From assembly GCA_964473825.1 (NCBI GenBank), contig CAYYQL010000042.1, positions 1-20,580 of the forward strand: a DNA stretch of 20,580 nucleotides, written 5' to 3'. This stretch comes from an uncultured archaeon. GTDB taxonomy: Archaea > Asgardarchaeota > Thorarchaeia > Thorarchaeales > Thorarchaeaceae. Positions within the stretch are counted from its first letter, which is position 1. Each line of letters starts with the position of its first letter. Of this stretch, positions 1 through 18,991 are shown one piece after another. The position numbers and the translations under genes are program-made. The notes beneath the pieces are model-generated. The model was not told the origin of the DNA, searched no databases, and saw only the letters and a program-made list of their open reading frames with translations.

Positions 1-150
1 TGCCCTCTCAAAGGTCTCGTCGAAGTCATCACCGCGAGGTCTCACACCACAGAGGCGGAGGATAGTCTCATCGAGGCGCTCGCCTGGAAGCCGCATCTTC
101 TCCAGCAACTGATAGACCTCTTCCGAGATCGAGATTGTCCGTGTGGTCAC
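1..150 (-). CDS. Archaeal VapB-type (DUF217-like, RHH) antitoxin, 3' end runs off the window
   Basis: Not in the ORF track. Manual translation from GTG at 150: MTTRTISISEEVYQLLEKMRLPGERLDETILRLCG..., matching the T-I-S-I-S-x-E-V-Y-x-x-L...GE...I-x-R-L pattern of archaeal VapB. TATA-like box upstream. Confidence 0.8.
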   Translation of the reverse strand, partial: MTTRTISISEEVYQLLEKMRLPGERLDETILRLCGVRPRGDDFDETFERA

Positions 151-194: not shown

Positions 195-536
195 ATGCAT
201 ATGAAACTTGGCGGTCATCGTCGCGCGCATTCGAAGGGGCTCGTTGGAATATCGCTCAGACCCGGTTCGCACTCGGTCCTGTTTGACTATGCTAGAAGAA
301 GAAGGCGGCTATACAAGACACAGAGGGGTGCTAGTAGTTGCCCGAAAAGATGGACAAAGCTGGCCATCTCTTGGACAATCCCGTGAGCCACTGTTGTGGC
401 CCTTCAGACACTACCACCGGAAGCAGGGCTCTGAGGTTGTCCTGACACATAACTGACCTCACCGCGTCCACCCACTGCCGTTCCCTTGGAGTACTTGACT
501 CTGGTGCCCAAGATTGTACAGCTCGCTATGAACGGC

Positions 537-1106
537 TTACTTTCCGGAGACCACGTAATGGTCCACGACGCGGAATCTTGATGGTTCATCTCGGGGAACT
601 GGTTCGATCCTCCAGAAACGGGACTCGTACAGGAAGTAGAGGAAACGTGAGATGAAGAGGCCTAGGCCGGGGCCGTAGAGCAGCAGTATCCAATCCAATG
701 CCTGCACGGCCCCCTGCGCAAACCATAGAATGAAACCGATAAGTCCGGGAATCACGAAGTAAGGAGGACTGAGCACAAGGAGCATTCTGCTGGGACGAAT
801 GGGCATCGCCCCTCTCCTGCGAAGGTCCCTGTGGAACTGGTGGAGAAGGAGGATGCCAACTGGAAAGAGACAGAGAGCAGAACCTACGTAAAGAATAGCA
901 GCCTCTGTGGCGCTCAGCTGAAGGGCCACATCGTAGGAACCCGCAGGACTCAGCAGTGGAGCTGGGTCCAGGATGAAACGCTTGGTCCCCAGAACACTCA
1001 ACATGATATCTGTTGCAGTCAGAGGAATGAAGGGCAGAGAGAACATGTAGTTGCCCGTTATCGGTTCGATCACATCTGCAGGGGTCTTGTTCTGCGTCTG
1101 CATCAT
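537..1106 (-). CDS. Hypothetical membrane protein (about 3-4 TM segments)
   Basis: ORF 537..1112 with several hydrophobic segments. GAGGAG lies 5 nt before ATG 1106, favouring that start. Confidence 0.7.
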   Translation of the reverse strand: MMQTQNKTPADVIEPITGNYMFSLPFIPLTATDIMLSVLGTKRFILDPAPLLSPAGSYDVALQLSATEAAILYVGSALCLFPVGILLLHQFHRDLRRRGAMPIRPSRMLLVLSPPYFVIPGLIGFILWFAQGAVQALDWILLLYGPGLGLFISRFLYFLYESRFWRIEPVPRDEPSRFRVVDHYVVSGK

Positions 1107-1446
1107 TCTCACTCCTCAAACAACAAAGGTCCAGAACCTGATTGGTCGGCAATCTGAGAGGCTGGCATCGAAGCCACAAGCTCCCTCAAGACACATGAGA
1201 GAACGAACAGCACAACAGACCTTCTTGATTCTCGAATAGCCTTCACCAACTACCGCCACCCACTGATATGGTCATTCCTTCTATATCAATACTCCGAATC
1301 AATGGCCTCCGTTCACTGCCTACGAGGGATTTATGCTATGGGACAGAGAACGTTGGGCTTTGGACAAGCGGGATTCGGGACGGCAGAATACGCAGAAGGT
1401 GGTTGATGGATCAAGAGAGTGACCCTCATGCCCTCAGATGATGAAC

Positions 1447-2625
1447 TCACCACGCTATGGCCGTGGAAACCACCGCCCTGCATATCTTCGTGAGAAAATC
1501 AAAATCGAGCTTATCGATTGTGTCGGCTCTGGTGTGATAGAACGGATACCTGAACATGGCTGAGTCGGTCAAGAGTAACGCAGGAATGTTCTCTCTCCAG
1601 AATGGAGCATGATCAGACAATAAGAGTGGCCTCATCATATAGGCGGCCTGCTTATAGCTGAACTCCTCCTGAAGGCACGCATAAGGGAGCTCTATGGACT
1701 CCAACTCGCACTGCGTGCAGAATGCATCGGCCAAGCTCTCAGAGTTCTGGTCGCCAATGACAAAGAGAGAGTCGCCCACAGTCAATGTCTCGTCGGTCTT
1801 GAAGATCTTGAACATATCAGGTTCAAGGCCCTCGGGAAACTGCTGCGAGTGTTTCTTGCTGGAGGTATAGCCCATGGTTTCCAGACAGAGAACACCCCGC
1901 ACCGTGATTCCTCTCTGTCCTGCATCTCTGACCCATGAGTCACTCCCGACTAGCCCTGTTCTTCCCGGCCAGTTGGAAGTAGAGATATTGCCGCTCATCT
2001 CCTTGATGCCCTCGATGTATCGCAATTCACCCGAAGATAGCTCATCCTTCATGTCCCGAAGTGAAGCCTCAACGGCTTCGGCAAGGAGCGTGCCTCCTGA
2101 CCATTTCTCGTTGAGCATCTGGCTGAAACGCTGCATCCTCTCAGCGATGCCCCAAGATGTATAGCGGCCTGAGTCATCTCGGATTCCAGTCTCCCGGGCC
2201 AGCTCCTCTGCCTTATGACTGCGCGTGGGATTCATCTCCTCGAGATTGAAGCTAACGAAACGTATCGGTTGTGTCAGTTCTGCCTGTGCGATCACGCGGG
2301 CGGCCTCTAGCATGACGGCAATTGCACTGCCATTGTCATTGGCCCCAGGTGCGTGTCTGACCGTGTCGTAGTGCGAGGCAATGAGCAGCTCTGGCCCCTC
2401 AGGTGCCTCATTCCTGCCCTCAATGTTGCGAAAAGTGTAGTCGAATCCTTCCACGCTGAACTCATGGACGTCCAAAACCAAGCCATATCGCTCGAACTCC
2501 TCGCATATGTAATCGGCACATGCTTCCATCGCTTCAGGGCTGTGGAGAACGTTCTTCTCTCCCTCGGTTCGGAAAATATGGTCGTATATTCTCTCAACGT
2601 CAACCTGATTCACTAGCCCATTCAC
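1447..2625 (-). CDS. M28 family zinc peptidase
   Basis: Motifs SHYD, GANDNGSAIAVMLE, FNLEE, LETMGY, SDHAPF and YHTRADT. GAGGCGGAG RBS before the GTG. Confidence 0.9.
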   Translation of the reverse strand: MNGLVNQVDVERIYDHIFRTEGEKNVLHSPEAMEACADYICEEFERYGLVLDVHEFSVEGFDYTFRNIEGRNEAPEGPELLIASHYDTVRHAPGANDNGSAIAVMLEAARVIAQAELTQPIRFVSFNLEEMNPTRSHKAEELARETGIRDDSGRYTSWGIAERMQRFSQMLNEKWSGGTLLAEAVEASLRDMKDELSSGELRYIEGIKEMSGNISTSNWPGRTGLVGSDSWVRDAGQRGITVRGVLCLETMGYTSSKKHSQQFPEGLEPDMFKIFKTDETLTVGDSLFVIGDQNSESLADAFCTQCELESIELPYACLQEEFSYKQAAYMMRPLLLSDHAPFWRENIPALLLTDSAMFRYPFYHTRADTIDKLDFDFLTKICRAVVSTAIAW

Positions 2626-2659
2626 AATCTCCGCCTCAACAAGGGAGAGGGGCCGGGGC

Positions 2660-2667
2660 GATATAAG
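2660..2667 (-). promoter_or_regulatory. Putative TATA box for the M28 gene
   Basis: CTTATATC on the minus strand about 35-40 nt upstream of the start. Similar TTATAT boxes lie at 4358-4364 and 7832-7838, upstream of other cargo genes. Confidence 0.45.
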
Positions 2668-2686
2668 TCTCGTTAGACAGGTTCCT

Positions 2687-2911
2687 GTGGCGTCGGCGCC
2701 ATGTCTCCTAACACATTATCTCAACCACCGAAGGCTGAGAAAATCGTCCGAGGACGACCACAGATACGGAACAGCAGAATTCTCTGTGCTGGACTCTGTC
2801 GATGAAGTAATTGAGATCCTCGAATCCTATGTGGACATATGGCATGAGAGCTCTGCAGAGAAATTGCTGAGAAAGGCTCGACGATTGAGAAAGAAGACTG
2901 AGAAGACCTAG
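2687..2911 (+). pseudogene. 3'-end remnant of unknown gene X (at element copy 1)
   Basis: ...SVLDSVDEVIEILESYVDIWHESSAEKLLRKARRLRKKTEKT*, homologous to the remnants ending at 5918, 8007 and 11961. TAG abuts the repeat element. Confidence 0.7.
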
Positions 2912-2972
2912 TTTCCACTCGGCCTGTTTGATAATGCAATAAGAATAGGGTGGCTCGACAAGACGCAAAGGG
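2912..2972 (+). repeat. ~60-bp conserved element, copy 1
   Basis: TTTCCACTCGGCCTGTTTGATAATGCAATAAGAATAGGGTGGCTCGACAAGACGCAAAGGG. Confidence 0.9.
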
Positions 2973-2990
2973 CAGAGTCCCCTTTGTTTT
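2966..2990 (+). terminator. Possible terminator hairpin overlapping the end of copy 1
   Basis: CAAAGGG(2966-2972)-7 nt-CCCTTTG(2980-2986) followed by TTTT. Confidence 0.35.
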
Positions 2991-3193
2991 GATCATCCTT
3001 TATTGCTCAAGCTAGGGTTTTATGTTGGTTCGTCTTGTGGGGACTTTTCACACATTGGTTCAGATATGTGTGTATTCACGACAGGATGTTGAATCAAGTA
3101 TGTTTATATTGTACTGCAACACAGTACTGCATGTGGGGTATTCTTCACAAGGAGTATCACATAACTGTCCACCATTAGTTTCATAATTAATAG

Positions 3194-4333
3194 TCATACA
3201 CCCACTTTTTTTCTCAGTTCTTTAACTTTGTAGACTTCCACATCAAACCCATTTTCGAAGACTTCACAGATTCTCTTTGCATTGTGGCCCATATATACAA
3301 GAACGTCCCCATCTCCCACTAGCATACGGTCTTCTGGGCTATAGAACTTGACACAGCCTCCCTTAGAATTCGCGTACTTGACACAGGCATGATAGGGTTC
3401 CACACCCTGTCTGAATTCAGGTTTCTTCTTCATCAGTGCCTCTACTATGGCATCATCATTGGGCTCACCGAATACCTGTACCTCTTTGGCGAGAGTATCA
3501 ATCAACAGGAAGACAATGGGTCGTGCGATATAGGGAGATGTATCGACAAGCTGCGTATGGTTCCAACGATATTTTGAAAGGAGATTATCATCGAGAAACC
3601 TAACCTCGGTTTCGAAGTCATAATCCGCCCAGATTGCCTCCAAGTTTGAGGGTTCGAGTTTTCTTAGCTCGTGCTCATCTTGCGAGTATAGCTTGGCATT
3701 AGTCAAGAAGGCAAGATTATCAGCCAATGAAACGACCTCATTGCACTCATCCCCTCGGATATAGATTTTTGGAGTGCACCGGGAGAGGAGCTCGCTCCAT
3801 GCTCTGGTTTCTTTGCTCGCGAAATTGTCCAGCATTACAGTTGATTCCATCGGTTCGTCGTTGCGCATTCTCTCCCTTGAGTAACTCCATGCAGCCAAAT
3901 ATGAGAACATAGGTTCCAGAGTTCGTAGAAACTCTTGAGTAGCGATTCTTTCAGTGGAGCACCGATAACCCCCGACTTCTACGTGGGGGATTCTGGACGG
4001 GGGGAGGATAACATAGGAGATGAATATCTTGGAGATGTGGGACTCGAGATCTTGCACTAATTGATCAACAAACGGAATCGCCCTCCTCATTCCAAGAAGC
4101 CTCTTGAGATTTGTTGAGTCGCAACACGTAAGACAATCCTCTATGCCAAATGAATCAAACAGTCTTCCAACTGCGTCATGATACTGGCTAGTAAAAGATG
4201 ACACGTTCTCAACTCGTACGCCCACTCCGAGTGGGGTATAGAATTCTGAATAGGACGGAGTCTGATCATCCCTCCTTTTTCCTCTTGTGAAGCTCTTGGC
4301 ATCAAAAGCAAGCACGGTTTCGTCCATAGCCAC
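3194..4333 (-). CDS. Hypothetical protein, possibly RNase H-fold (DUF3800-like)
   Basis: Intact 379-aa ORF with acidic motifs VLAFDAK, VMLDNF and RGDECNEVVSLADNLA. The ORF is well supported; the fold is inference. Confidence 0.6.
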   Translation of the reverse strand: MAMDETVLAFDAKSFTRGKRRDDQTPSYSEFYTPLGVGVRVENVSSFTSQYHDAVGRLFDSFGIEDCLTCCDSTNLKRLLGMRRAIPFVDQLVQDLESHISKIFISYVILPPSRIPHVEVGGYRCSTERIATQEFLRTLEPMFSYLAAWSYSRERMRNDEPMESTVMLDNFASKETRAWSELLSRCTPKIYIRGDECNEVVSLADNLAFLTNAKLYSQDEHELRKLEPSNLEAIWADYDFETEVRFLDDNLLSKYRWNHTQLVDTSPYIARPIVFLLIDTLAKEVQVFGEPNDDAIVEALMKKKPEFRQGVEPYHACVKYANSKGGCVKFYSPEDRMLVGDGDVLVYMGHNAKRICEVFENGFDVEVYKVKELRKKVGV

Positions 4334-4467
4334 TCGTCAAGATATCCACATTTTGCCATATAAGCCCCTGCGTTTCAGATCCAGCTTCATTGGTCTAGAT
4401 AAGTCGGATTCCTGTGAGATTGCAGGATGTGTCCGTTTCTTGTAGCATTGAAGTCAATCACAGCAAA

Positions 4468-4528
4468 TTAACACCAATGTCGGATAACATTGTAATAAGA
4501 ATAGGGTGGCTCAACAAGACGCTAAGGG
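4468..4528 (+). repeat. ~60-bp conserved element, copy 2 (no gene X remnant)
   Basis: TTAACACCAATGTCGGATAACATTGTAATAAGAATAGGGTGGCTCAACAAGACGCTAAGGG. Confidence 0.85.
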
Positions 4529-4597
4529 AAATTCTCATCCAGCCTGTTCGCAGCCTCTCTTTTCGAGATACTCCAGAGCCCCCTATCATCCGGGACT

Positions 4598-5734
4598 CTA
4601 GGAGGTCTTCCTCATGTTTGATTCGGCCTCTGCTACAAGAGCATCCCACTCAGGTAGCGATCTTAGGCTATCGAAGTCCACGTTCTCCTTCATGCTTCCT
4701 ACATTGGACCATCCATGATCCAGTGCCATCCGAAGAAGCCCCAATGCCCGACTTATGTTGCCCAGGAGTGCATACGATCTTGCAGCCAAGGAGTAGACCC
4801 ATGCCTCGACCCCTCCTGTCTGGAGTGCCTCGTCAAAGATCTGTACGGCCGCCTCATGTTCCCCTCTTAGGAAGAATCTCAATCCAGCCTCAGCAATATG
4901 CATGGCCTCGACCCTATGACACTCGTATTGGAGATACCGCCGCTCAAGTTCGAAACCAACCTTCTCGGCCGTCTTCTGAGATGCCTCATTGTAGTCGTGC
5001 GTATGCCATCCAACTACTTCGAAACCCCTATCGAAGGCGAGGTCGATATTTGCAGCCGCTGTGACCGTGGCCAGTCCTCTTCTGCGGAACCGTTCAAGAG
5101 TCTGAATCCCAATCTCGCACTCATCTCCATGGACACAGTCTGCAAGACTATAGGATACAATACTGCTCTCATGAACGATACAGGTACCGAATCCGTGCTT
5201 CAGGTAGCTCTCTTTTGTTCCCCAGTTCATCTTGACCCAGAGTCTAAGATGGTCTGGAATCTCAAGAGCATCGTCTTCCAAGATATGCTCATCAAGTTGG
5301 TGAACACTAAAGCCCTCTGGTAGAAGGGGCCTCCAGTCCACTCTTACCTCTCTGCAGAGATAGTGCAATCTATTCACTTCGAGAGGGGGCCTGAGGGAGA
5401 ATATATCAGGAAAGCTTGAGATCCAGTCATCGCTGCTGATATCAAAGAGAAGGACTGCTTCGCTCTCCCAGTCCGCGTTTCCATGGCGAAGGTAGTCCTC
5501 AAACCACTTCTTAAGCCATGTATTGAACTGCTTGTTGGTCGGTTCCCCGGCAAGGAAGAATCCCTCAGAATTCACCATCCATCCGCAGGTGGGGGCCATC
5601 TCATCGTCAACATAGAGCCATCCCGGGTTTGTCCCGTCCAACATCGATTCAACTACCAACTGGTAGTGCAGGGGCTCAAACAGGGGTCTAGCCCGTTCAT
5701 ACTGGTCTTTCGGCAGTCTAATTTTCGGCGTCAT
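4598..5734 (-). CDS. GNAT family N-acetyltransferase with C-terminal TPR-like helices
   Basis: GFGTCIVHESSIVS, EIGIQTLERFRRRGLA (acetyl-CoA motif A) and NEASQKTAEKVGF. C-terminus YSLAARSYALLG...ALDHGW...DFDSLR is TPR-like. Confidence 0.88.
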   Translation of the reverse strand: MTPKIRLPKDQYERARPLFEPLHYQLVVESMLDGTNPGWLYVDDEMAPTCGWMVNSEGFFLAGEPTNKQFNTWLKKWFEDYLRHGNADWESEAVLLFDISSDDWISSFPDIFSLRPPLEVNRLHYLCREVRVDWRPLLPEGFSVHQLDEHILEDDALEIPDHLRLWVKMNWGTKESYLKHGFGTCIVHESSIVSYSLADCVHGDECEIGIQTLERFRRRGLATVTAAANIDLAFDRGFEVVGWHTHDYNEASQKTAEKVGFELERRYLQYECHRVEAMHIAEAGLRFFLRGEHEAAVQIFDEALQTGGVEAWVYSLAARSYALLGNISRALGLLRMALDHGWSNVGSMKENVDFDSLRSLPEWDALVAEAESNMRKTS

Positions 5735-5822
5735 CTTCGCTCCTCAGGTTCGGTCCGGAAACTCCCCTCCTCAATCTAACTCTTGTGTAGACAGCAAGAA
5801 CTGGAACCATGGGGGATAGCAT

Positions 5823-5918
5823 ATCCATGAGTGATATGAGGATACATGACATGAGAGCTCTGCCGGAGAACTGCTGGACGAGGCTCGACAGCTGCGTGAG
5901 AGAATCAGAGAGACCTAG
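5823..5918 (+). pseudogene. 3'-end remnant of gene X (at copy 3), with in-frame stops
   Basis: IHE*YEDT*HESSAGELLDEARQLRERIRET*. TGA at 5832 and 5847; the second replaces the TGG (Trp) seen at copies 1 and 5. Confidence 0.75.
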
Positions 5919-5979
5919 TTCACACTAGGCTGTGTTGAATATGCAATAGAATAGGGTGGCTCGACAAGACGCTAGGGGG
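5919..5979 (+). repeat. ~60-bp conserved element, copy 3
   Basis: TTCACACTAGGCTGTGTTGAATATGCAATAGAATAGGGTGGCTCGACAAGACGCTAGGGGG, nearly identical to copy 5. Confidence 0.9.
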
Positions 5980-6272
5980 CCAGGAGCCCACACTGCAGCC
6001 GGTTTCAGTGGAGTTGACACAGACACATAGAGGGTCCCTTATGTGTAAGCAACTCGAATAGATGATGGTGCTTCTGATGAGTACGAGAGAGAGACTGACC
6101 ATGATCTCGTCGGTCTTGAGGAGGGTAAACAGGTCCAGAATCCAATTGAGCTTGCGCTTCATGGAAAGAAGTTCACAAAGGTCAGTCTGGATGAGATAGA
6201 GAGGGTGAGCGCTCAACAGCGCACGAGGATGAGGTTTTTTTTTTCTTTCATAACGCGGGGTAACCTCTCTCC

Positions 6273-7793
6273 TCAGCTGAAGATGGATGAAAACTTAGTC
6301 TGTAGATACTTCAGATATGGTTTGCACGACATCTCTTTGCCTGTGACTCTCTTCATGAGATCTGGCGCATCATAGAGTCGCCCCTTCTTGTGGATGTTTT
6401 CAGACATCCAACTGACAATATCGGAGATGTCACCATTGGCAATCTGGTCCCTCCAATCGGACATCTGCTTTGACATGGCCTCTGCTAACTGTGCCGAAAA
6501 TATTTTTCCTAGTACAAACATCGGAAAATAACCATAGTAACCACGTCCCCACTGCACGTCTTGCAGTGCACCTTCGCCGTCGTCATTCACTGTCACTCCA
6601 AGGTACTCCTCATAGAGCTCATTCCAGACGGATGGTATATCGGAGATCTCGATCTTGTTATCGAAGAGATCTTTCTCAATCTCAAATCGAATGATGATAT
6701 GAGAAGTATATGTTAACTCATCGGCGGTAACACGGATGGGGCTGGGTCGTACTCGGTTTACGGCTCTTGCAAACTCATCCGCACTTATGTCCTTGAACTG
6801 CCCGTCTGTGGTCTCGTTCAGAATAGGCAAGAAGTATCGGATGAACTCGGGCGACTTTCCAACCATGTTTTCAAGAAACCTTGACTGTGACTCATGGATT
6901 GAGAACCCTGGTGGGTTCCCCACGAGCTGATATTGCCATTCTCTATTTAGATTCAGATTATATTGTGCATGGCCAGATTCGTGAATGAAAGCAGAACAGG
7001 CTTGAAAGAAATTCTTCTCCTCGAATTGCAGCCCGATTCGTACGTCATCATATCTACCAAATACCATGCCAGGATGCACACACTCGGCTATATGCCCGAT
7101 AGCCTTCTCTGACTTGAGGTCATAACCTACAAATTCTGCAAGTCGCTCAATCAACTGAATTTGGGTGGCCTTCTCTACGGACCTATTTAGAAAGTCAGTG
7201 TTTTCCTCCTGCGAGATGTTGGCATATTTCTCAACCATAGAATTCAGAGGTGCTTTCAACTCATCAAAGACTTTAGTGATGTGTTCTGTCCTCATTCCCA
7301 TTTCGAAGTGGTCTATACAGACATCATATAGGTCAGATACACCCACAATGTCCTGAATACACTGGTTGTATTCGAGCATCAGGTCATACATCTTCTCGAA
7401 CTCAGGTTCAAAAATAGACCAGTCATTCTTGGCCAGGGCCTTCTCCCGTGCATTATTCGTTATAGTCCGCTGCCTACCCCATTGCCGAACCAAGTCTTCT
7501 GGAACCTGAGTGTCCATGTCATATTCTCTTCTCATGAGAAAGACGTTGCGTTTCTGAACCTTCGTCAGCGTTTTGCAAACTGATTTCTTCTCAACGGCAT
7601 CGAGAAGCCGACCGACCCCCTTGTCTGTTCCCATGCGGTGCCATAGGGATCCAAGGAGGACATTCTGTTCAGCTCTTTGTGACACAGCCCCCGGTGGCAA
7701 GAAGGTGTAGGTATCCCAACCCAGGGTCCCCATAACCGACTCAAGGATGGCGATCTCTCTATGCTTCTCAAGTAGTCTCTCATATGCCTCCAT
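6273..7793 (-). CDS. M32 family (Taq/Pfu-type) carboxypeptidase
   Basis: HESGH (HExxH), HESQS, IRVTADELTY..HIIIRFEIE, LQDVQW and GYFP. ATG 7793 preferred over the upstream TTG 7808. Confidence 0.92.
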   Translation of the reverse strand: MEAYERLLEKHREIAILESVMGTLGWDTYTFLPPGAVSQRAEQNVLLGSLWHRMGTDKGVGRLLDAVEKKSVCKTLTKVQKRNVFLMRREYDMDTQVPEDLVRQWGRQRTITNNAREKALAKNDWSIFEPEFEKMYDLMLEYNQCIQDIVGVSDLYDVCIDHFEMGMRTEHITKVFDELKAPLNSMVEKYANISQEENTDFLNRSVEKATQIQLIERLAEFVGYDLKSEKAIGHIAECVHPGMVFGRYDDVRIGLQFEEKNFFQACSAFIHESGHAQYNLNLNREWQYQLVGNPPGFSIHESQSRFLENMVGKSPEFIRYFLPILNETTDGQFKDISADEFARAVNRVRPSPIRVTADELTYTSHIIIRFEIEKDLFDNKIEISDIPSVWNELYEEYLGVTVNDDGEGALQDVQWGRGYYGYFPMFVLGKIFSAQLAEAMSKQMSDWRDQIANGDISDIVSWMSENIHKKGRLYDAPDLMKRVTGKEMSCKPYLKYLQTKFSSIFS

Positions 7794-7875
7794 CACCAAA
7801 CACTCCAAAGAGCAAAACGCTCGGCTATCTAGATATAACCATGTCTAATTAATGTGGCGGACCTCAATAGAATAG

Positions 7876-8007
7876 TATGATGTCGCTGGGCGCCTTGACG
7901 AAACTATCGAAATCTTAGTGAACTATGGCAAGGAACACAACGATAAGTCAGCTCTTGTTCGAGCGGATGAGGTCCGTGAATTGAAGAAATCGTACGAAGA
8001 TACCTAG
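7876..8007 (+). pseudogene. 3'-end remnant of gene X (at copy 4, most diverged)
   Basis: YDVAGRLDETIEILVNYGKEHNDKSALVRADEVRELKKSYEDT* aligns with DEVIEILESY...RRLRKKTEKT*, and ends with the same ACC TAG. Confidence 0.65.
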
Positions 8008-8070
8008 TGTCCACTCCTCTTGGATTGAGATGTGAAAATTGTTAGGTGCTCAACAGCGTGAGCGTAAGGG
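8008..8070 (+). repeat. ~60-bp conserved element, copy 4 (diverged)
   Basis: TGTCCACTCCTCTTGGATTGAGATGTGAAAATTGTTAGGTGCTCAACAGCGTGAGCGTAAGGG. Retains TCCACTC, TAGG-TG-CTCAACA and terminal AAGGG at similar spacing. Confidence 0.65.
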
Positions 8071-8318
8071 AGATCGAGGATAACGGGGATGACAGGGAGA
8101 AACTTGAGGTCAGACTGAACTCTCTCAGAGAGTTGCCGAACGAAACTCGGTCAGAGAAGGGGATGGGGCCTAAGCTCTCATCGAACTGGCACGGCGTGAC
8201 ATCGAAGATGGAACCGTCCCTTCAGCACGGGAACCCCCATTGCACCGACCTCCGTCAAGAACCCCAACTCAAACCATCTCTGTGAGAGAAAGCAGCATAG
8301 ATGACAGTCTGAATACCA

Positions 8319-8927
8319 TTAAGACTGGTCGCTAGATTCAATTGCTCTGTGCTGTGCAAATAGGTGGACGCTGAATGATATGATAGTGGATATGGCGGAG
8401 ATCAGTGGTCCGTTTCCTACAGAAATGGCGGCATTTTCAGCAAACAAGAACGCTCCATCTATTGGAAGACTATCAATCTGACCATGAATGACAAACACGA
8501 ATGGAGTGTAATAGCAGATGGCAAGGACGCAAGCAACGAGAGAAGCTATAGAACCACCTAATACTATCAGATTTGTAATATGTTCTCCTTTGTGTTCTTT
8601 GGTGAGTGATGCTACTAGTAGTAAGGCCATTACTCCTGAAACTAGAGGGAAAAGACCAAACCAATAGTCGCTTGATGCTGAAGAAAACTGGTCACCGGCC
8701 CATACGGTAACTGACGCTGAGGACGAATTAAGTGAACCAAATCCAAAGCCACAAGTATACCCCGAAACAGCATGAGTTCCAATAAGAGGGTGCTCAAATT
8801 CACCCGTAAATATGATCCAAGGTTCGAAGACACCCCAGATTGTGAACAGCGAGGCGATGATAACAATGAGTCTTGGGGTGTCTAACCTCAAGTGGATTTC
8901 CTGATTGGTTGGGAGTAGATTGAGCAT
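8319..8927 (-). CDS. Hypothetical membrane protein (about 4 TM segments)
   Basis: ORF 8319..8978 with four hydrophobic segments. ATG 8927 is the likely start. Confidence 0.65.
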   Translation of the reverse strand: MLNLLPTNQEIHLRLDTPRLIVIIASLFTIWGVFEPWIIFTGEFEHPLIGTHAVSGYTCGFGFGSLNSSSASVTVWAGDQFSSASSDYWFGLFPLVSGVMALLLVASLTKEHKGEHITNLIVLGGSIASLVACVLAICYYTPFVFVIHGQIDSLPIDGAFLFAENAAISVGNGPLISAISTIISFSVHLFAQHRAIESSDQS

Positions 8928-9233
8928 AATGAATCTTTCGCGATATGTTCTCTGTGAAAAGCCAATCAGGGAATACACGGATGTTTTGTCAGTCTGGCAT
9001 CATAACGCATGATGTGATTGCTCAATTGATAAACTGGCACCATCTGGACATATTGGAAGGATTGCAATTATTTGAAACCCGGTCGAGCTGGGTAGTGAGC
9101 TTCAAGGCATTATCTGCAATAGTAGACAGCATGAAAGAAGGAGATGAGTGTGATGTCTTGAGTATGCATTCTCAACCGAACAATGGGCCAGTTCCTGATG
9201 ACAATGAGAGAGATGTGTTGCAATCCGGTGGAG

Positions 9234-9258
9234 TTATTAGGGATAAAAGCCCTAATAA
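9234..9258. promoter_or_regulatory. Perfect 9-bp inverted repeat, putative AbiEi operator
   Basis: TTATTAGGG-ATAAAAG-CCCTAATAA immediately upstream of ATG 9269/9278. AbiEi antitoxins are known to autorepress via promoter inverted repeats. Confidence 0.6.
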
Positions 9259-9268
9259 TCGTGCCGAG

Positions 9269-10150
9269 ATGTTGCAAATGACCCAGTTGGACAGAGCATA
9301 TGACGAGATGCTCATACGAGAGGTTGTGACCCTTGCTGATGCGAAAGAAATCATTGAAAAAATTTCAAATCGTGCGATATCTAGAAGAGCTGTGGTCCAA
9401 GAATATCTAACACCTCTCATCGACCGTGGGAGAATGGAGCGTGTCAGACGCGGACTCTATGTGATTGGAGTGCCTGAAGCAAGTGGCGAGCTGATGTTCT
9501 CAACCTCTCAAGGCATGAAGAAGCAGAGTCCGGACAAATTCTTGATAGGTGCCAAGATCCGGGAGAGAGGTTTCCTAAGTCACCATACTGCACTGGAGGT
9601 GCATGGTGCAAGCCAGACCTTTGGTTGGGGGACTGTATATGTCAGCGTTTCAAGAAAGAAGAGGTTCCGATCCTTCGAATATCGTGGGATTCTGTACACA
9701 CCTGTGTCAACAAAGGACCCATCCACAGGAATCTCGAAGGTCAAACATCGTGGGCAAGAGATCCTGGTAAGCACACCAGAGCGAACCTTCATAGATTGCT
9801 TGGAGAGAGTTGATCTAGGGGGAGGATGGGAGGAGGTCTTAAAGGGGGTCTCTCAACTCCGACTGAGGGACTCTGCAGTCCTTGTGAAGCTGTTGGAGGA
9901 GCGGAGGAACCAGACACTTATTCGAAGGGTTGGAATCATGCTTGATCGTTTCAACGAGGCGATCTCCAACTACATCTACATGTCTGACTTTGAAAAGGTC
10001 CGTGCACGACTCCAAGCACTTCTTAAGGGACGCTCTCTGTACATCGACAGAGGGCTAAAGGATATGACCAATGCAGAGATGACCCATGACAGGGAATGGC
10101 GTGTCTATTACCCTCGCAACTTCTGGGAGAATTATGAGAGAGGCGTGTAG
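9269..10150 (+). CDS. abiEi: Type IV TA antitoxin, AbiEi family (wHTH + AbiEi C-terminal domain)
   Basis: RVRRGLY (wHTH wing), FLSHHTALEVHG and STPERTFIDCL. Ends 2 nt before the AbiEii-like gene. True start is likely ATG 9269 or 9278 rather than 8945. Confidence 0.85.
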   Translation: MLQMTQLDRAYDEMLIREVVTLADAKEIIEKISNRAISRRAVVQEYLTPLIDRGRMERVRRGLYVIGVPEASGELMFSTSQGMKKQSPDKFLIGAKIRERGFLSHHTALEVHGASQTFGWGTVYVSVSRKKRFRSFEYRGILYTPVSTKDPSTGISKVKHRGQEILVSTPERTFIDCLERVDLGGGWEEVLKGVSQLRLRDSAVLVKLLEERRNQTLIRRVGIMLDRFNEAISNYIYMSDFEKVRARLQALLKGRSLYIDRGLKDMTNAEMTHDREWRVYYPRNFWENYERGV

Positions 10151-10152
10151 GA

Positions 10153-11235
10153 ATGACTGGGTGGAAGGATCCTGAATCGGTCCATAACGAAACCCGGCAG
10201 AGCGAGGATGTCTCAGAGCTACTCGATGCGCGAACCATCGAGCAGGTTCGCCGTCAAGTCAACGTACTGGAGGAGATATATGCTAATGCCTACTTGTGTG
10301 AGCGCTTGGTTCTGGGTGGCGCGAGTGCTCTCTTGTATGTGCACTTCGAATCTGCGCCTCGAATAGTGACTCATCTTTCATCAGGCATACAGATGATGGC
10401 CATTCCTAGGGTCACGGCAGATGTCGATGCGGACTATCACTTCCCCAACCTTGACCTTTCCTATGAGGAGGACAGGAAGAAGACCGAGAGTGTGTTGAGG
10501 AGCATCCTTGAACGACACGGCGTTCTGCAGATTCGAAAGAATGAGAGGTCGCTCAACCTTGATGTTCAATACAAGGGAGAAGAGGTTCAACAAGGTACGT
10601 TCAAGGTGGAAATCAACTTCATGCGCCGATATCCGGTCCTTGGATATATCGAGGGGGCCTTCAAGGACCCTGTATCCGACAGGACCTTCTTGGTGAAGAC
10701 CTATCCTAAGGAACAGGCATTCGCGAACAAATGGAGGACGATGATCTCGAGGAACAAGCCCTCAGATATCTTCGATGTGTATCATATCTCCCAAGCTGAC
10801 TGTGATAGGCAGAGGTTCATGCGCTGTGCCGTACTTGAGTGCATGCTTGAGCTTCAGCCTCGTGGAAGCCCGAATCCATGGGGCGGTGATGTGCTTCATA
10901 GAGTCCTTGGACTTGATGTCGCTGAGAATATCAAGACTACCTTCGGCCTATCCCATAGGCCCAAGGTCTACAAAGGAACGTTTTCGGTCGAGGACCTCAA
11001 GTCGATGAGGAAACCCGTGATAGAGTTCAGTCAAGGAATCCTTTCCGAGATGACAGAAGCCGATGAGGCGGCTATAGAGAGGTTCTTCACTGATAACGCC
11101 TCATCACCGCGGATGTTGGTCGCAGAGGTCCTTGGGATGATAGATCCCAACAATATCTTTGACCAGAAGGTATACGAGCATCCGCAGCTCTACGACCAGA
11201 TAGAACGACGACGGTTGAATTCCGAGGGCACATAA
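10153..11235 (+). CDS. abiEii: Type IV TA toxin, AbiEii/AbiGii nucleotidyltransferase
   Basis: LVLGGASAL, PRVTADVDAD (DxD), KVEINF and ANKWRTMISRNKPSDIFDVY. Confidence 0.85.
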   Translation: MTGWKDPESVHNETRQSEDVSELLDARTIEQVRRQVNVLEEIYANAYLCERLVLGGASALLYVHFESAPRIVTHLSSGIQMMAIPRVTADVDADYHFPNLDLSYEEDRKKTESVLRSILERHGVLQIRKNERSLNLDVQYKGEEVQQGTFKVEINFMRRYPVLGYIEGAFKDPVSDRTFLVKTYPKEQAFANKWRTMISRNKPSDIFDVYHISQADCDRQRFMRCAVLECMLELQPRGSPNPWGGDVLHRVLGLDVAENIKTTFGLSHRPKVYKGTFSVEDLKSMRKPVIEFSQGILSEMTEADEAAIERFFTDNASSPRMLVAEVLGMIDPNNIFDQKVYEHPQLYDQIERRRLNSEGT

Positions 11236-11357
11236 ACCACTCATCAGTCAGACTATGATGAACCTTGAGTGAACAAGTTACCACACCTAGCCACGAAGAG
11301 AACCAGGAGACCGATGGGGCCCCAGATTATATCGAGAGAATCTATGGCACAAGCCCT

Positions 11358-11837
11358 CTAACTCACGACACCGATGGCAAACTGCGCTCTGCGAGCATCC
11401 AGCGAGTCTTCGAGTTGCTTGAGGAAACCACTCTTTCCACCAATACTGGTTGAGGCAGCCTTGGCCTCAATCACGATCTTCAGAGGGTTCTGCAAGCTCT
11501 TCTCATTCACCTCGATGAGAAGGTCACCAACCTTCCTGCCGCCAACCTTCTTCTTCCCAATTATCTCGATGTTGTCGCCCGGCTTCGAGCAGATGGGTTG
11601 CAGGAAGTCATGGAACTCCTCCTCGAACTCCACACCCTTCCTCGTGCCCACCTCTGCCTCCTCGGCGCGTTCGGCCTCCTTCATCACAGTGTCACGCAGT
11701 TCCTGGATCTCGCTCTTCAGGTCATGGCGCAGGTCCCAGAAGGGACTCCCCTCGGAATAGGGGTCAAGAACTGACCGAAGCGGGCTGTCGATGTCAGAGA
11801 ACGCCCGTTGCAGCACCCCTCTCTCCGAGACCGACAT
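11358..11837 (-). pseudogene. Internal fragment of a DUF2130/RmuC-like PD-(D/E)xK protein
   Basis: Coiled coil followed by KGVEFEE...GDLLIE...IVIEAK...AQFAIGV. Appears truncated at both ends; the 5' side abuts a gene X remnant. Confidence 0.6.
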
Positions 11838-11859
11838 CGTGAGCCTGCTCTCTGCTGGC

Positions 11860-11961
11860 GAGATAATCTTCGAACGGTATGTTGCACGATGGCAGGAAGA
11901 CTCGGCTCGAGAACTGCTGGACGAGGCTCGAGAACTGAGAACGAAGACGGAGAAGACCTAG
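11860..11961 (+). pseudogene. 3'-end remnant of gene X (at copy 5)
   Basis: EIIFERYVARWQEDSARELLDEARELRTKTEKT*. Confidence 0.75.
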
Positions 11962-12021
11962 TTGACACTAGGCTGTGTTGAATATGGAATAGAATAGGGT
12001 GGCTCGACAAGAAGCAAGGGG
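11962..12021 (+). repeat. ~60-bp conserved element, copy 5
   Basis: TTGACACTAGGCTGTGTTGAATATGGAATAGAATAGGGTGGCTCGACAAGAAGCAAGGGG. Confidence 0.9.
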
Positions 12022-12050
12022 TAGAAAGCAGGCTAAACGATGCACTTGAG

Positions 12051-13118
12051 CTACGATGTCTTGCTCCACAACCACCGGGCAATCTTAGAAACCCAATCGG
12101 GAGTTAGTTCCTGTCCAAAATACTGGATATATCCGACCAGCCTGTTCGGTCGCATGATCTTGACATAGCGAGGCTTGGATTTCGGCCACGCGCCTGTCAC
12201 CGAAATGATGCTTCTCACCTTGAACTTCCGCAGGCTCCAGCGGAACTTCCGTATCTTTACCTTCGGCCCACCGAACTTGCGTTGGATGGCAACAAAGAGC
12301 CCACGTCCAGCGCGGCGCGTCTGCTGAATGGGAGAGTACAGGCTATTATTGTCAAGCGACTCCTTGCTCCAGTACTTGGACTCGATATTGAAGACACCCG
12401 AGGGGCCAACCACCACATGGTCAATCTGGCAGGACACGATGGGACCGAACTCCGTTGACACGGGCGGTTTGAGTCGGACGTTTACATCATTGATCACATG
12501 GTAGCTGTCAGGGAGCTCCCTCAGAGCATCGAGGGTCTTGCGCTCACCCAGGGCGCCGACCCGCCACGATGCAAGGTCAGACAGGGCCCTGTCAATCCGG
12601 CGCTTTCTCTCGTGTTCATCAGCCAGTCGCTTCGCCACTTCCTCGTCGGAGTTGGACTCGAGATATTCGGTCCGGCTTGCAAGTCGCTCAATCTCAGTAT
12701 AGAGGTCTTTGAATGGCTTGGCCACCTCATCAAAGAAGTGATCCTCAAGCCTTCTCTTTCGTCGCTGCTTCAGATAACGAGAGAGCCGCCTGTATATCCA
12801 GAGGAATGGGTTTCGAGTTGGTTCAGGAGATACAGAGAATTCCTTAACGAGCTGACTGTGCTCCTCCTTCAGCTCGAGGGTACGTTGCTGACGGAGCTGA
12901 TCGCGCTGCTGGATGGCTCCCTCGCTCTGTCTATGGAGGTGTTCAATCTCCCTGCGAATGGCCTGCCGGGTCTCATCTTCCTTTCGAGCGATAATGCCGT
13001 CTGACTCTGTGATGTGCAACTCCACATCACTAAGGGAGTTGATCCCCTTGATACCTCGTTTTCGAAGATTCTGGACAAGAACCCTTTCGGAGCCGGGAAC
13101 ACCGTGTACTCGAGCCAC
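12051..13118 (-). CDS. NERD (nuclease-related domain) protein with N-terminal coiled coil
   Basis: GALGE...LPDSYHVINDV...QIDHVVVGPSGVFNIESK. GTG 13118 is preceded by GGGAG. Confidence 0.88.
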   Translation of the reverse strand: MARVHGVPGSERVLVQNLRKRGIKGINSLSDVELHITESDGIIARKEDETRQAIRREIEHLHRQSEGAIQQRDQLRQQRTLELKEEHSQLVKEFSVSPEPTRNPFLWIYRRLSRYLKQRRKRRLEDHFFDEVAKPFKDLYTEIERLASRTEYLESNSDEEVAKRLADEHERKRRIDRALSDLASWRVGALGERKTLDALRELPDSYHVINDVNVRLKPPVSTEFGPIVSCQIDHVVVGPSGVFNIESKYWSKESLDNNSLYSPIQQTRRAGRGLFVAIQRKFGGPKVKIRKFRWSLRKFKVRSIISVTGAWPKSKPRYVKIMRPNRLVGYIQYFGQELTPDWVSKIARWLWSKTS

Positions 13119-13345
13119 CTGTGAAACTCCCTTCGATAGGGTACGCTGCAAATCTCCGCTTATTTGTTTCGTATAGAGAGAAAATCAATCCACTAACGGC
13201 ATTGAGTGAGAATAGTCGTCTGTTGACGATGGATTAAAGAGGGCCTTCTGTGAAGGGTCTAGACGGAGATAGAGATAACAAGTATATCGTGGAGTCTATA
13301 TTCTCTACTACGGAACTAATCTCAGATGACAAAGGAGGCATTGAG

Positions 13346-13855
13346 TTGGGTTTTGAGAAAAGATTCAGACTTCGGAAGTTTCTTGATTTCCTCGGCGAAG
13401 ATATTAGTATGGATACTCTGAGCCAGAGAATCGAGTTCCAGAAAATGACGTACCTCTTACAAGCCTTCGATGTTGACATCTGGTATCCTTTCAACTGGTA
13501 TCTACATGGCCCCTATTCGACTCAACTAGCAGATGATGGTTTTGCTCTTGCTAGCATGGATTCGTCCAAATTGGACAAACTCGCTGAGCCCTACAGTATA
13601 GAGGAGAACAGAGAGAATCTTGAGAGGATGAGAGAGTTTCTCCAACATCTGAGAGAGATAACCCCTGGACTCAAGGATTACGAGCGATTCGAGTTGGCTG
13701 CCTCACTACATTTCTTAGCTAGACGAACTCTACGAGACAGAGGGAACTGCAAAAAGATAGTAGAACGACTTCGACAGCGGAAGCCGGAATTTCGTCTGGA
13801 ACAAGCCACTAGGGTCTGCAGGTTGATGAGTGAAGTAGGCCTCATCCGTCCATAG
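13346..13855 (+). CDS. YwgA/SocA (DUF4065, Panacea)-like protein
   Basis: FQKMTYLLQ...YPFNWYLHGPYSTQL...ELAASLHFL. GGAGG lies 7 nt before in-frame TTG 13346 (the ORF track starts at 13250). Confidence 0.75.
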   Translation: MGFEKRFRLRKFLDFLGEDISMDTLSQRIEFQKMTYLLQAFDVDIWYPFNWYLHGPYSTQLADDGFALASMDSSKLDKLAEPYSIEENRENLERMREFLQHLREITPGLKDYERFELAASLHFLARRTLRDRGNCKKIVERLRQRKPEFRLEQATRVCRLMSEVGLIRP

Positions 13856-13889
13856 TCCCTTAGACAATAGTGCGAGGGTTGTAAATTCT

Positions 13890-15119
13890 TTGAAGAAAAT
13901 CTACGACCCAATCCACGGCTACATCACTTTGGATGCAGAGGAACTGGCAGTCGTTGATTCACTTCCTTTTCAACGACTTCATCGGATTCATCAAAACGGA
14001 CCAGCCTACTTGGTCTATCCTACCGCTCAGCATACCCGCTTTTCGCACTCACTGGGTGTGTATCAGGTCATGGATACCTTTGCCAACAAGCTCGCCGAAC
14101 GAGGAGCAATCAATGGTGACGAGCAAAGAGTCCTCAAATTGGCGGCATTGCTACACGACATAGGACACTTCCCTTTCTCTCACATGATAAGGAAATGGGA
14201 ATCGAAAAAAGGGAGGTTCCTCTCGCATGAAGAAATGGCTGAGAGAATAATCGAACAGCCTGAGCTTCGTTCTGTGATCAAGAAGCCCGAAGACAGAGAA
14301 AAGATAGCACAGGCTATCGCAGGAGAAATCGATAACCCCACCTTCGCTTATCTCATGTCATCAGACATCGATGTGGACAGAATTGATTATCTTCTCAGAG
14401 ATGCATACCATACGGGTGTGACTTACGGTGGCATCGACCTCAACCGGATTGCGGAGACAATGGACTATGATGACGAAGGATTGTGTTTCCAAGAAAAGGG
14501 GATTACCGCAGTCGAGAACTTCCTCTTGGCCCGATATCACATGTATGAAGCAATCTACAATCACAAGACTGTGGTTGCATTTCGATTGCTGTTAGAGAGA
14601 ATCCATCAGATGCTTGTCGAGAAGGAGGATGTCTATGATGGAGATGCGGTTCAGAGTCTCGACTCCAATGAATGGAACAGCTACACCGATGGGTACCTCT
14701 TCCATCAGATGAAGGATGCCTGCAAAGGAGCTACAATCCTCTCTGAGATGATTGAGGACTTCTTCCACAGAAGACCCTTGAAGCTGGCGGGCTCGGCCAT
14801 GGTATATGACAGGGAAGAGCCAGATGACCGCTATACTGGCTTGCAGGACCTCAGTGCGCCTCAGGAACGACAAGACTTCAGTACCTCAGTCGGCGTTGAC
14901 CCAGAATGGGTCTTCTATGAAGAGTTGAGTAATGAGTTTGTCAAGTTTGAGGAACAGACCAATCCTGTCCGGATCAAGATGAATTCCGGCGATATCGTCA
15001 ACTTAGTCGAATTCCGACCTCACTTCTCGCGCATCGCAAAGAAGGAGATAAGGGTCTACACCAGGAGTAATCACAAGAAAATAGTCAGAGAAGAGCTTGA
15101 GAAGCTCTACGGGATCTAA
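13890..15119 (+). CDS. HD-domain phosphohydrolase (COG1078/YwfO, SAMHD1-like dNTP triphosphohydrolase family)
   Basis: DPIHGYI, FQRLHRIHQ, HTRFSHSLG, AALLHDIGHFPFSH, DVDRIDYLLRD and MYEAIYNHK. Confidence 0.9.
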   Translation: MKKIYDPIHGYITLDAEELAVVDSLPFQRLHRIHQNGPAYLVYPTAQHTRFSHSLGVYQVMDTFANKLAERGAINGDEQRVLKLAALLHDIGHFPFSHMIRKWESKKGRFLSHEEMAERIIEQPELRSVIKKPEDREKIAQAIAGEIDNPTFAYLMSSDIDVDRIDYLLRDAYHTGVTYGGIDLNRIAETMDYDDEGLCFQEKGITAVENFLLARYHMYEAIYNHKTVVAFRLLLERIHQMLVEKEDVYDGDAVQSLDSNEWNSYTDGYLFHQMKDACKGATILSEMIEDFFHRRPLKLAGSAMVYDREEPDDRYTGLQDLSAPQERQDFSTSVGVDPEWVFYEELSNEFVKFEEQTNPVRIKMNSGDIVNLVEFRPHFSRIAKKEIRVYTRSNHKKIVREELEKLYGI

Positions 15120-15462
15120 GGATGTATTTGAAACTCTAGAGGAGCAGTTTACTTAATAGGGCGGGAAGATTCGCCTCCTATGAGGCATTGAGATGGTCTG
15201 TCAAATCTGTGGTAGCAAGAGTGGTTTGCGAGCATCTGCTTGATACTTGGGAGGAGTTAGACATCTCCGAGCCGGCTCCGTGAAAGACTATGTAGGAGTT
15301 CAAATAGCTTGATCTGGACACCTCATTCTGAGGTCAATATGACAGATATTTCGGCCTCACAGAGTTGGTCCAGTGCCGTTTCTGGACGGACATCACTCTG
15401 CTGTCCAAGTTTGTCTAACCAAAAATGAACGGTTTTATCCCCTGTGTATGCATCACTACCAG

Positions 15463-16383
15463 ATGACCAAGACTGGAGAGGTCGTGAAGTGCTCGGAGTG
15501 CGGACGCTGGTACCTTGCATCAGAGGGCTGCCCCACATGCGCAAAGGAAGCGAGTGGCGAACCGGAGGGCATGACCTTCCAGCGGGAGCTGGTCGAGAAC
15601 TGGAGCAAGCGGCTGTATGCAATCGCGAAAGAGGGCGAAAAGTGGGCTAGAACTGAACACGATGAACGGAGATACGAGGAGATCCTAGGCATCTCCGGCG
15701 AGATACATGCCCGCTGGTGTGATACTGATGCCAACCTCATCGACATCCCGATGGATTCGCTTGAGGACTGGAGCTCGGTGCTGTCCGACGTGGCAAAAGA
15801 GGGGTTGCACTACTCGGACGATAGCCACGACATCCGTCGCTATTCGGGGGTCCTTGAGGTGGCTGAAGACCTAGCGCAGCAAGTACGGTCGGTCTCCATT
15901 GAGCCACAAGTTGTTCCTGAGAAGGAGGGTTCGGCCTCGGATGTCCTGTTTGTGGCTGATCGGGAGATAGCTCCAGCGCTGATTGGCATGATAGAGAAGG
16001 CGGAGCAGAGGGTGTTGATCGCCACGCCGTGGATATGGGGCATAGACGAGATTGTTGAGAAACTGACCGAGCTCAAGCAGGAGCGAAATATCACGGTGAA
16101 GATCCTCGTGCGAAGACCCGAGCCGGGAAAGGAGGACCAGCACAAGGAGATGGTTAGAACACTCTGGAAGCGGGAGTTCCTCGTGGAGACCGAGGACTTC
16201 CTCCATGCGAAGCTGATTCTGGTGGATAATAAGGAGCTGTACATCGGCTCTGCGAACCTTGTCAGGACGTCCATGGACCGCAATCTGGAGGCGGGCATCT
16301 GCACCAGCGATCCCTCTGCGGTCTCGGATGCGTTGGTGTACTTCGAGGACAAGTTCGAAACGGCCTTCGGAAAGAGAATATGA
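15463..16383 (+). CDS. Zn-ribbon + two Nudix_N-like repeats + PLD (single HKD) domain protein
   Basis: CSECG...CPTC; two W..L..A.EG....HD.RRY repeats; LHAKLILVD...YIGSAN. TTTTAT about 25 nt upstream of ATG 15463 suggests that start (the ORF track starts at 15373). Confidence 0.8.
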   Translation: MTKTGEVVKCSECGRWYLASEGCPTCAKEASGEPEGMTFQRELVENWSKRLYAIAKEGEKWARTEHDERRYEEILGISGEIHARWCDTDANLIDIPMDSLEDWSSVLSDVAKEGLHYSDDSHDIRRYSGVLEVAEDLAQQVRSVSIEPQVVPEKEGSASDVLFVADREIAPALIGMIEKAEQRVLIATPWIWGIDEIVEKLTELKQERNITVKILVRRPEPGKEDQHKEMVRTLWKREFLVETEDFLHAKLILVDNKELYIGSANLVRTSMDRNLEAGICTSDPSAVSDALVYFEDKFETAFGKRI

Positions 16384-16466
16384 ATACGTTTCCTTTATGT
16401 GCCTAGTGCAGCTCGTTCCTACAGAGTGTCCTTGTTAAATCAAGAGAATCGCCAGTATCATACGCC

Positions 16467-16619
16467 ATGAAAATCGGCAAGAATGTCGAATGTCTAGATT
16501 GTGGCCATGTTGGATACTCTGTATGTCCACCGCCTGCGATCAGTCTTGACGGCGACAAGTCACAACCAGTTCCAGCCTGTGCGAAGTGCAGGAGTGGAAA
16601 TCTCAGATACCTAGAGTAG
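16467..16619 (+). CDS. 50-aa Zn-ribbon microprotein
   Basis: Not in the ORF track. MKIGKNVECLDCGHVGYSVCPPPAISLDGDKSQPVPACAKCRSGNLRYLE* has CxxCG...CxxCxS.N knuckles. Confidence 0.65.
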   Translation: MKIGKNVECLDCGHVGYSVCPPPAISLDGDKSQPVPACAKCRSGNLRYLE

Positions 16620-18984: not shown

Positions 18985-18991
18985 CTCGGAC

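Follow-up and report, generated by a model that had tools for sequence, protein, structure and literature searches.

Why should one stretch of archaeal DNA carry the end of the same gene four times, each time running into the same short repeat? The question is raised by a contig of 20,580 bp (C42, referred to in its entirety as the window), one of 103 contigs in a 3.27-Mb Thorarchaeota genome bin (G000). Four remnants of a gene, here termed X, close in frame on ...T and a stop codon (ACC TAG) and pass without a gap into a repeat of ~68 nucleotides (nt), here termed the site; the stop codons lie at 2906-2908, 5916-5918, 8005-8007 and 11959-11961. An initial annotation had described this arrangement from the letters alone, and the sequence and stop positions bear it out. 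The repeated gene ends are probably, with a confidence somewhat beyond even, the decayed right ends of an element that combines a giant Cas1-like protein (aCas1) with TnpB and lodges at the 3′ end of the 16S ribosomal RNA (rRNA) gene, its pile-up having produced an array of accessory and defence genes. Direct support comes from the homology of the relics to X, the Cas1-like fold of X, its TnpB neighbour, its adjacency to 16S, the identity of the site with the 16S trailer, one pair of empty and occupied loci, and the presence or absence of whole units at the site.

The remnants derive from one real gene, as had been proposed. When the six-frame translation of the entire genome was searched with a C-terminal profile of X based on 16 orthologues, r1, r4 and, in two places, r5 were matched; outside the relics of the window the profile matches only a decayed copy (contig C17) and a paralogue (contig C6). 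The profile did not recover r3, which is too short and broken; the last 78 aligned nt of r3, stop codon included, are 81% identical to the 3′ end of the intact X in G002, a genome of the same genus. The four relics are as follows (aa, amino acids; iE, independent E-value).

2789 to 2908, plus strand: r1, relic of about X aa 1683-1721 within a chance open reading frame (ORF) at 2687-2911; tblastn with X gives 56% over 39 aa, and the profile matches 2789-2905 (iE 8.8e-4).
5823 to 5918, plus strand: r3, relic with two in-frame stops, the copy nearest to the intact X of G002.
7885 to 8007, plus strand: r4, a C-terminal X relic more diverged than the others, without a usable start codon; the profile matches 7885-7998 (iE 6.4e-4).
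11800 to 11961, plus strand: r5, composite relic of aa 1468-1492 and aa 1691-1721; tblastn matches are 96% (25 aa) and 74% (31 aa), and the profile matches 11800-11877 (iE 1.4e-5) and 11866-11955 (iE 3.8e-3).

Each relic of the C-terminus spans 30-56 aa. The differing 5′ breakpoints and the two nonsense codons reported earlier are both present: the relics start at different residues of X, and the copy with the nonsense codons is r3. In r5, an internal deletion of ~198 aa has fused two separate parts of the protein, with a short CGG microhomology at the joint. Because r3 contains stops, r4 lacks a start codon and r5 is a deletion product, the remnant peptides are best regarded, on their sequences, as non-functional pseudogene pieces of the X C-terminus and not as complete small proteins, one of the possibilities that would have spoken against the initial annotation.

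A full-length gene ending in the remnant sequence, which the initial annotation had proposed to look for, exists in G002 (L015:9909-15074, minus strand). It encodes 1721 aa, ends in ...ELLDEARHLRERISET and a stop codon (ERISET and stop), and is followed by the same site. Homologues of X occur almost solely in Thorarchaeota, where a genome has several paralogues; identity is 34-42% for orthologues and about 25% for paralogues. Searches with X of Pfam, PADLOC, a protein atlas and PDB sequences gave no match, and fold comparison alone was informative. In a structure model of residues 1-600 (predicted local distance difference test score, pLDDT, 82), aa 1-215 superimpose on the Cas1 catalytic domain with Z 13.1 and a root-mean-square deviation of 3.6 Å over 180 aa (VIA-align, 3god), although the match is to a helical domain and the tool warns that a Z near 13 may be chance for such folds. 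The top 36 rows of the fold comparison for the N-terminus are all Cas1 or casposase (Foldseek probability 0.99), and residues ~260-560 match nucleases of the Cas4/AddB/MGME1 type (Z about 6). H157, E163, D165 and D168 are invariant in a 20-sequence N-terminal alignment; in a 23-sequence full-length alignment three of the four are invariant and E163 nearly so. We take their spacing to resemble the His-Asp-Asp/Glu motif of Cas1. The N-terminus of X is predicted to be a Cas1-like catalytic domain, an assignment that is good but not final.

The neighbourhood of X points in the same direction. In intact relatives, genes for TnpB (PF07282) and a ClpP-like protease adjoin X upstream and are transcribed away from it; the divergent TnpB neighbours score 1.2e-13 (L021) and 3.3e-13 (L019) with PF07282. 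The module in these two loci codes for the ClpP-like protease, TnpB and X only, with no tyrosine or serine integrase, and has copies of the site core on both flanks. The window itself contains no TnpB and no intact element. Loci of this kind have been described as aCas1-TnpB (Cas1H-Asgard-1/-2), with a giant Cas1-like protein beside a divergent TnpB, flanked by repeats, and with aCas1 as the proposed transposase (Altae-Tran 2023, PMC10691335). The locus of X, with its divergent TnpB and with repeats on both flanks in relatives, matches this published class, in which X would be the aCas1. The initial annotation had offered, as its alternative, that X is the recombinase or transposase of the element itself and that the remnants are one-ended, rolling-circle-like copies. 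The first half fits the Cas1-like domain and TnpB; nothing points to rolling-circle copying.

Two further observations concern relatives of X in the same genome. Contig C17 carries a decayed aCas1-TnpB pair at 5829-7481, composed of a C-terminal TnpB fragment (5829-6377, minus strand) and an X-like fragment with a frameshift (6520-7481, plus strand); both genes have lost their divergent 5′ halves to deletion. The paralogues of X in this genome (~26%; contigs C2, C6 and C26/C39) have no site copies and no rRNA neighbours downstream.

The site accounts for the second half of the question. Well-kept copies of the ~68-nt repeat occupy three places in the window, and the other window copies are core-only, diverged or decayed. 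A core of ~35-40 nt is present in every copy, and all copies are in direct orientation. The core reads AATAGGGTGGCTCGACAAGACGC in this genome and has the family-wide form GGGTG(G)CTCARCA.

251 to 328, plus strand: s0, diverged site copy without a stop codon and without a recognisable X remnant (nhmmer with the site profile, E 3.6e-15).
2899 to 2974, plus strand: s1, site copy with the 16S-trailer core, its trailer hairpin and T run still present (nhmmer E 9.7e-22).
4454 to 4529, plus strand: s2, site copy conserved in the core alone (4491-4528), without an X remnant (sequence alignment, site profile).
5904 to 5978, plus strand: s3, site copy (nhmmer E 3.2e-21).
8002 to 8264, plus strand: s4, heavily decayed site copy (about 8002-8075) and a piece of the trailer beyond the core (8236-8264, 90% identical to the G002 trailer).
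11952 to 12023, plus strand: s5, site copy (nhmmer E 2.8e-18).

In G002 and in loci L018, L019, L020, L021 and L026 the 16S gene converges on X, with the 16S 3′ end 140-260 nt past the X stop; the exception is L019, in which one extra cargo unit lies between. That unit (11128-12834) contains a mercuric-reductase-like gene (Pyr_redox_2 and HMA domain). Among 30 16S loci of the family, the X C-terminus lies within 1.5 kb of 16S in 11. In 24 of the 30 the site core follows the 16S end at a distance of 80-250 nt, and several of these have no X close by; in the remaining 6 the flank is shorter than 300 nt or the core is a variant missed by the pattern. In cofolding, the site pairs with the 16S leader. 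Because the core trails 16S in 24 of the 30 loci and cofolds with the leader, its sequence identifies the site as the outer 3′ strand of the pre-16S processing stem, conserved in the family with or without X. A structured RNA or an attC-like hairpin was considered as the nature of the site and rejected, as it folds no better than shuffled sequence (z-scores of -1.2 to +0.7 in seven of eight folds), with only a short hairpin over the stop codon recurring. Scans of the window for tRNAs and Rfam families found nothing.

Other features of these 16S genes were seen in passing. In L067 and L068, which are 16S loci of two further genera, the trailer core occurs a second time, 0.8-1.0 kb away from the end of 16S, and no X is found within 1.5 kb, so small arrays occur where X is absent or further off. 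Several Thorarchaeota 16S genes have a tiny insertion (about 27-80 nt) just before their ...ATCACCTCCT 3′ end (L015 ~9735-9775; L019 ~14230-14290; flanks of L074, L085 and L089), and the 16S gene of G002 contains a LAGLIDADG ORF (L015 8352-9032).

The array extends beyond the window on both sides. Contig C75 abuts the left end with an overlap of 55 identical bases, a join that is colinear with a contig of G001. It carries two further site copies, one with a relic, and contig C48 carries two more; the site profile has no other match with E < 0.5 in the genome. It had been suggested that an intact X might lie left of the window, where C75 holds only relics, toxin-antitoxin genes and histidine kinases. 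No intact orthologue of X was found in the whole G000 assembly by tblastn and the C-terminus profile. Contig C30, which breaks off within the 16S gene, shows synteny with the flank in G002; by this synteny the array must run rightward from the window over the assembly gap to 16S. Because of the orientation, an intact X, if there is one, should lie in that gap, to the right of the window toward 16S. Metagenome contigs from four runs of one study of a microbial mat break at site copies, with loose ends that run into the 16S end. Some of them continue weakly from 8264 into GCACTTCTGCTGC...GGAGGT, the 16S end, and two weak joints (2974 to 8230 and 310 to 8288, with a shorter side of 28-29 nt) occur among them. 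These joints and loose ends hint at other arrangements and are too weak to serve as evidence.

Insertion at the 16S end can be followed in relatives. In genus g4, the empty form (G101, L064) consists of a unit with an S9 peptidase, the trailer and 16S. The occupied form (G005, L021) has 9.8 kb inserted, with methyltransferase, protease, TnpB and X, flanked by trailer copies of ~146 nt (4304-4449 and 14240-14386). Peptidases of the S9 and alpha/beta-hydrolase types and a methyltransferase occur in the arrays of L021. To the left of its X module, L019 has a trailer copy of the type found at the 16S gene of another species of the genus (86% over 77 nt); this copy matches the locus's own trailer over only 29 nt. 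The copy on the right of X takes in the final ~19 nt of the 16S gene. The distal trailer copies of L019 and L021 are nearest to the 16S trailers of other lineages and less close to their own, and such displaced trailers look foreign or ancestral by sequence. The idea that the remnants record successive events is upheld by this pattern in related arrays. Among G000, G001 and G002, a toxin-antitoxin unit occurs in some and is lacking in others, its junctions falling precisely at the site, where the left and right flanks are also reassorted. X erodes by deletion, as seen in r5, in the TnpB/X stump of C17 and in L063, where ...DLLEKIKKGLPPR and its stop alone remain beside the 16S gene.

These observations can be joined in a model of displacement and erosion. 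The element would consist of the ClpP-like protease and TnpB genes transcribed in one direction and X in the other, followed by a 16S-trailer copy and then by the 16S gene reading toward X. A segment carrying X would insert between an existing trailer and 16S, its ends coming to be flanked by two trailer copies; such segments would reach the 16S end either bringing a trailer copy or creating one. Repeated arrivals, some from other lineages, would shift earlier units leftward, away from 16S, and each displaced unit would retain its right end, namely the 3′ end of X and a trailer copy. Deletions would then erode X from its 5′ side or internally while useful cargo persists, and the trailer copies would later permit gain or loss of whole units by recombination. 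The window would be an older, distal part of such an array. We infer the order in which units arrived in this genome, and likewise the crossover chemistry and the inserting activity; candidates for this activity are aCas1, repair following cleavage by TnpB, and ordinary homologous recombination. The model explains why the 3′ junctions are kept, why the 5′ ends differ and why the site is better conserved than the relics. Identity in nt sequence is 50-81% for the relics and 79-92% for the adjoining sites, a contrast that mirrors the pattern between lineages. The initial annotation had pictured the travelling unit as remnant, site and cargo; the order cargo, remnant and site is more likely.

The same contrast between relics and site could be read differently. 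X might be a resident host gene, with donor pieces made of X remnant, site and cargo entering the resident site through an unspecified integrase or homologous recombination and X itself remaining passive. Such a scheme would accommodate remnants that are far more diverged than the site, and also the constant position of X beside 16S across genera. It would further suit the block 12988-16385 (DarG-like, dGTPase-like HD and PLD/Nudix_N genes), which is 92.8% identical to contig C28 of G002 as opposed to only 80% for the 7.8-kb core flank; this difference suggests recent exchange of the block between species. A passive host gene, however, would not be expected to have Cas1-like integrase and nuclease domains, a TnpB partner, many paralogues and decayed copies elsewhere. 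In the empty and occupied pair the X module itself is the inserted DNA; in related arrays the relics sit on the side of intact X away from 16S and not downstream of X, and no integrase was seen among the cargo. We consider this scheme unlikely, and the view of X as an ordinary resident gene under targeting, which the initial annotation had favoured, is not supported.

Local duplication is a second alternative, in which unequal crossing-over or slippage multiplied the DNA spanning the X 3′ end and the trailer within this chromosome, drift followed, and cargo arrived later and independently. One copy on C75 (copy "a") is 91% alike to r3, and r4 and s4 have decayed jointly. The leftmost units are 82-86% identical to G001, near the 80% of the core flank with G002, which fits old vertical inheritance. 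Yet the remaining copies have a 92-100% conserved core next to relics that are 50-70% alike, the distal copies in L019 and L021 best match the trailers of other lineages, and the units of congeners differ exactly at the site. Local duplication is therefore improbable in our estimation, to about the same degree as the host-gene scheme, and both fit less well than the piling up of an aCas1-TnpB element.

The Cas1-like domain invites a third possibility, that aCas1 acts as in CRISPR adaptation and inserts kilobase DNA at the trailer core, the core being a long target-site duplication that comes to act as a CRISPR repeat and the units giant spacers. The core is indeed found in all copies in direct orientation, and core-only copies exist (s2, and those left of the X module in L019 and L021). 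On the other hand, many copies extend far beyond the core and their right ends vary, the flanking copies in L019 belong to two trailer types with only ~30 nt in common, which is unexpected for a fresh duplication, and terminal inverted repeats were not noticed, no systematic search having been made. We regard this possibility as very unlikely. A broader version, in which X actively inserts kilobase DNA at the trailer core to build a gene-capture array like a CRISPR array or an integron, held in place by an RNA-guided TnpB aimed at 16S, is unlikely.

Several observations also weigh against the aCas1-TnpB element itself as the source of the repeated gene ends. The caution that attaches to the Z score of a helical domain is one, and it is joined by the lack of any sequence-level Cas1 match for X in Pfam or PDB searches. 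The right ends of the duplicated stretch vary among copies and genera: the stretch stops just after the core in the window, extends in L021 to a distance of 15 nt from the end of 16S, and reaches inside the 16S end in L019; no single precise cut fits. A fixed target-site duplication or a precise recombinase site was accordingly rejected as a general rule, as the copy ends vary. X occurs at the same place in several genera with 36-42% identity, which could reflect long vertical residence and not repeated invasion. The intact X, its TnpB and the 3′ part of 16S are missing from the assembly, and the link between window and 16S comes from orientation and relatives. Finally, the core is 92-100% alike in distal copies, where an rRNA function is not expected, and this likeness is unexplained unless the copies are young or kept alike by recombination.

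Parts of this picture are already known, namely aCas1-TnpB loci and the tandem build-up of elements at RNA genes. The accessible text of PMC10691335 is silent on the 16S 3′ end, on repeats that are trailer copies and on relic-ended cargo arrays, and the present window differs from the published loci in holding relics only. Aloposons of Heimdallarchaeia, as far as the accessible text describes them (PMC8813620), differ in their tandem giant proteins of 3,000-6,000 aa and their tRNA targets, with no Cas1-like domain reported.

Some integrative elements and islands, tycheposon islands among them, target the 3′ ends of tRNA genes, pile up in tandem and leave decayed elements split by partial copies of the target. 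The arrays described here share an insertion point at the end of a stable-RNA gene, the terminal sequence of which is duplicated or replaced, and an empty site in a relative (L064 versus L021). They differ in that the target is the 16S trailer, the candidate enzyme is Cas1-like with no tyrosine or serine integrase, and the crossover points vary. Tandem insertions are also known for casposons, which likewise use a Cas1-family integrase as transposase and insert beside a conserved gene end. In contrast to casposons, no PolB was found in the ORFs scanned with Pfam (in the window, L019 and L021, a selection with some but not all ORFs of the X modules), no terminal inverted repeats were noticed (no search aimed at them was made) and there is no fixed duplication of 14-15 bp. 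X moreover lacks the N-terminal domain of Cas1 and is about five times larger.

Integrons resemble these arrays in their one-directional series of small cargo units, their recurring site of ~60-70 nt and the presence or absence of units between strains. Unlike integrons, no sizeable window ORF encodes an IntI-type recombinase and the site has no significant hairpin; the site duplicates the flank of an rRNA gene, and relics of the element's own gene lie within the units. CRISPR arrays have fixed repeats and short spacers, whereas the copies here have variable left and right ends and are separated by units of 0.8-9 kb.

Neither a 16S-trailer target nor cargo arrays marked by aCas1 relics were found in the searchable literature. 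So far, aCas1 has been a bioinformatic class "possibly associated with mobile elements", and the arrays give it a home at the 16S trailer, a pair of empty and occupied loci and a series of decayed copies. They make it possible to test whether a Cas1-family enzyme can serve as a transposase with no polymerase. In Asgard archaea, the lineage related to eukaryotes, a site beside the most conserved gene of the cell stores peptidase, resistance and defence genes, some of them swapped between species. The arrays break assemblies at 16S, so accessory genes linked to 16S are easily missed in metagenome bins.

The cargo of the window, unit by unit, is as follows.

1447 to 2625, minus strand: M28 peptidase, in the unit ending in r1/s1 (Pfam PF04389, 1.8e-24).
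3194 to 4333, minus strand: 379-aa protein without a match in family searches, between s1 and s2.
4598 to 5734, minus strand: GNAT acetyltransferase with TPR repeats, in the unit ending in r3/s3 (Pfam PF12746, 1.9e-29).
6273 to 7808, minus strand: M32 carboxypeptidase, in the unit ending in r4/s4 (Pfam PF02074, 8e-149).
8319 to 11235, both strands: 219-aa protein of unknown type (minus strand) and AbiEi/AbiEii (plus strand), in the unit ending in r5/s5 (PADLOC, AbiEi 1.6e-36 and AbiEii 3e-23).
12051 to 20161, no single strand assigned: the next unit, cut by the contig end, with NERD, DarG-like, dGTPase-like HD, DrmC-like PLD, HNH, DUF4411 and IrrE-like genes; no additional site copy lies in this unit.

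No tyrosine or serine recombinase was found among the window cargo by Pfam, PADLOC and other scans of sizeable ORFs, the far ends of the array being unassembled.

The left part of the array contains two toxin-antitoxin units. One combines a vapB-like antitoxin with a Fic/DOC fragment (window 1-150, minus strand, with C75:24-514) and the other is a vapB-like/PIN pair (C75:857-1519); the stretches upstream of them (C75 698-888; window 345-535) are 81% alike in opposite orientation. An element of ~190 nt with sharp ends is also found in at least 11 near-complete copies and several fragments genome-wide, for example in full at G000 C48:14103-14291 and C3:119517-119707. It ends in ...GTCCAACATACAATGAACGG, after which the sequence differs from copy to copy and is unrelated. 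Pieces lie in the window at 345-535 and 15370-15431, and incomplete copies overlap two gene starts, that of the PLD gene (15373) and that of a vapB-like gene on C75. The ~190-nt element could be a miniature transposon or a guide-RNA scaffold.

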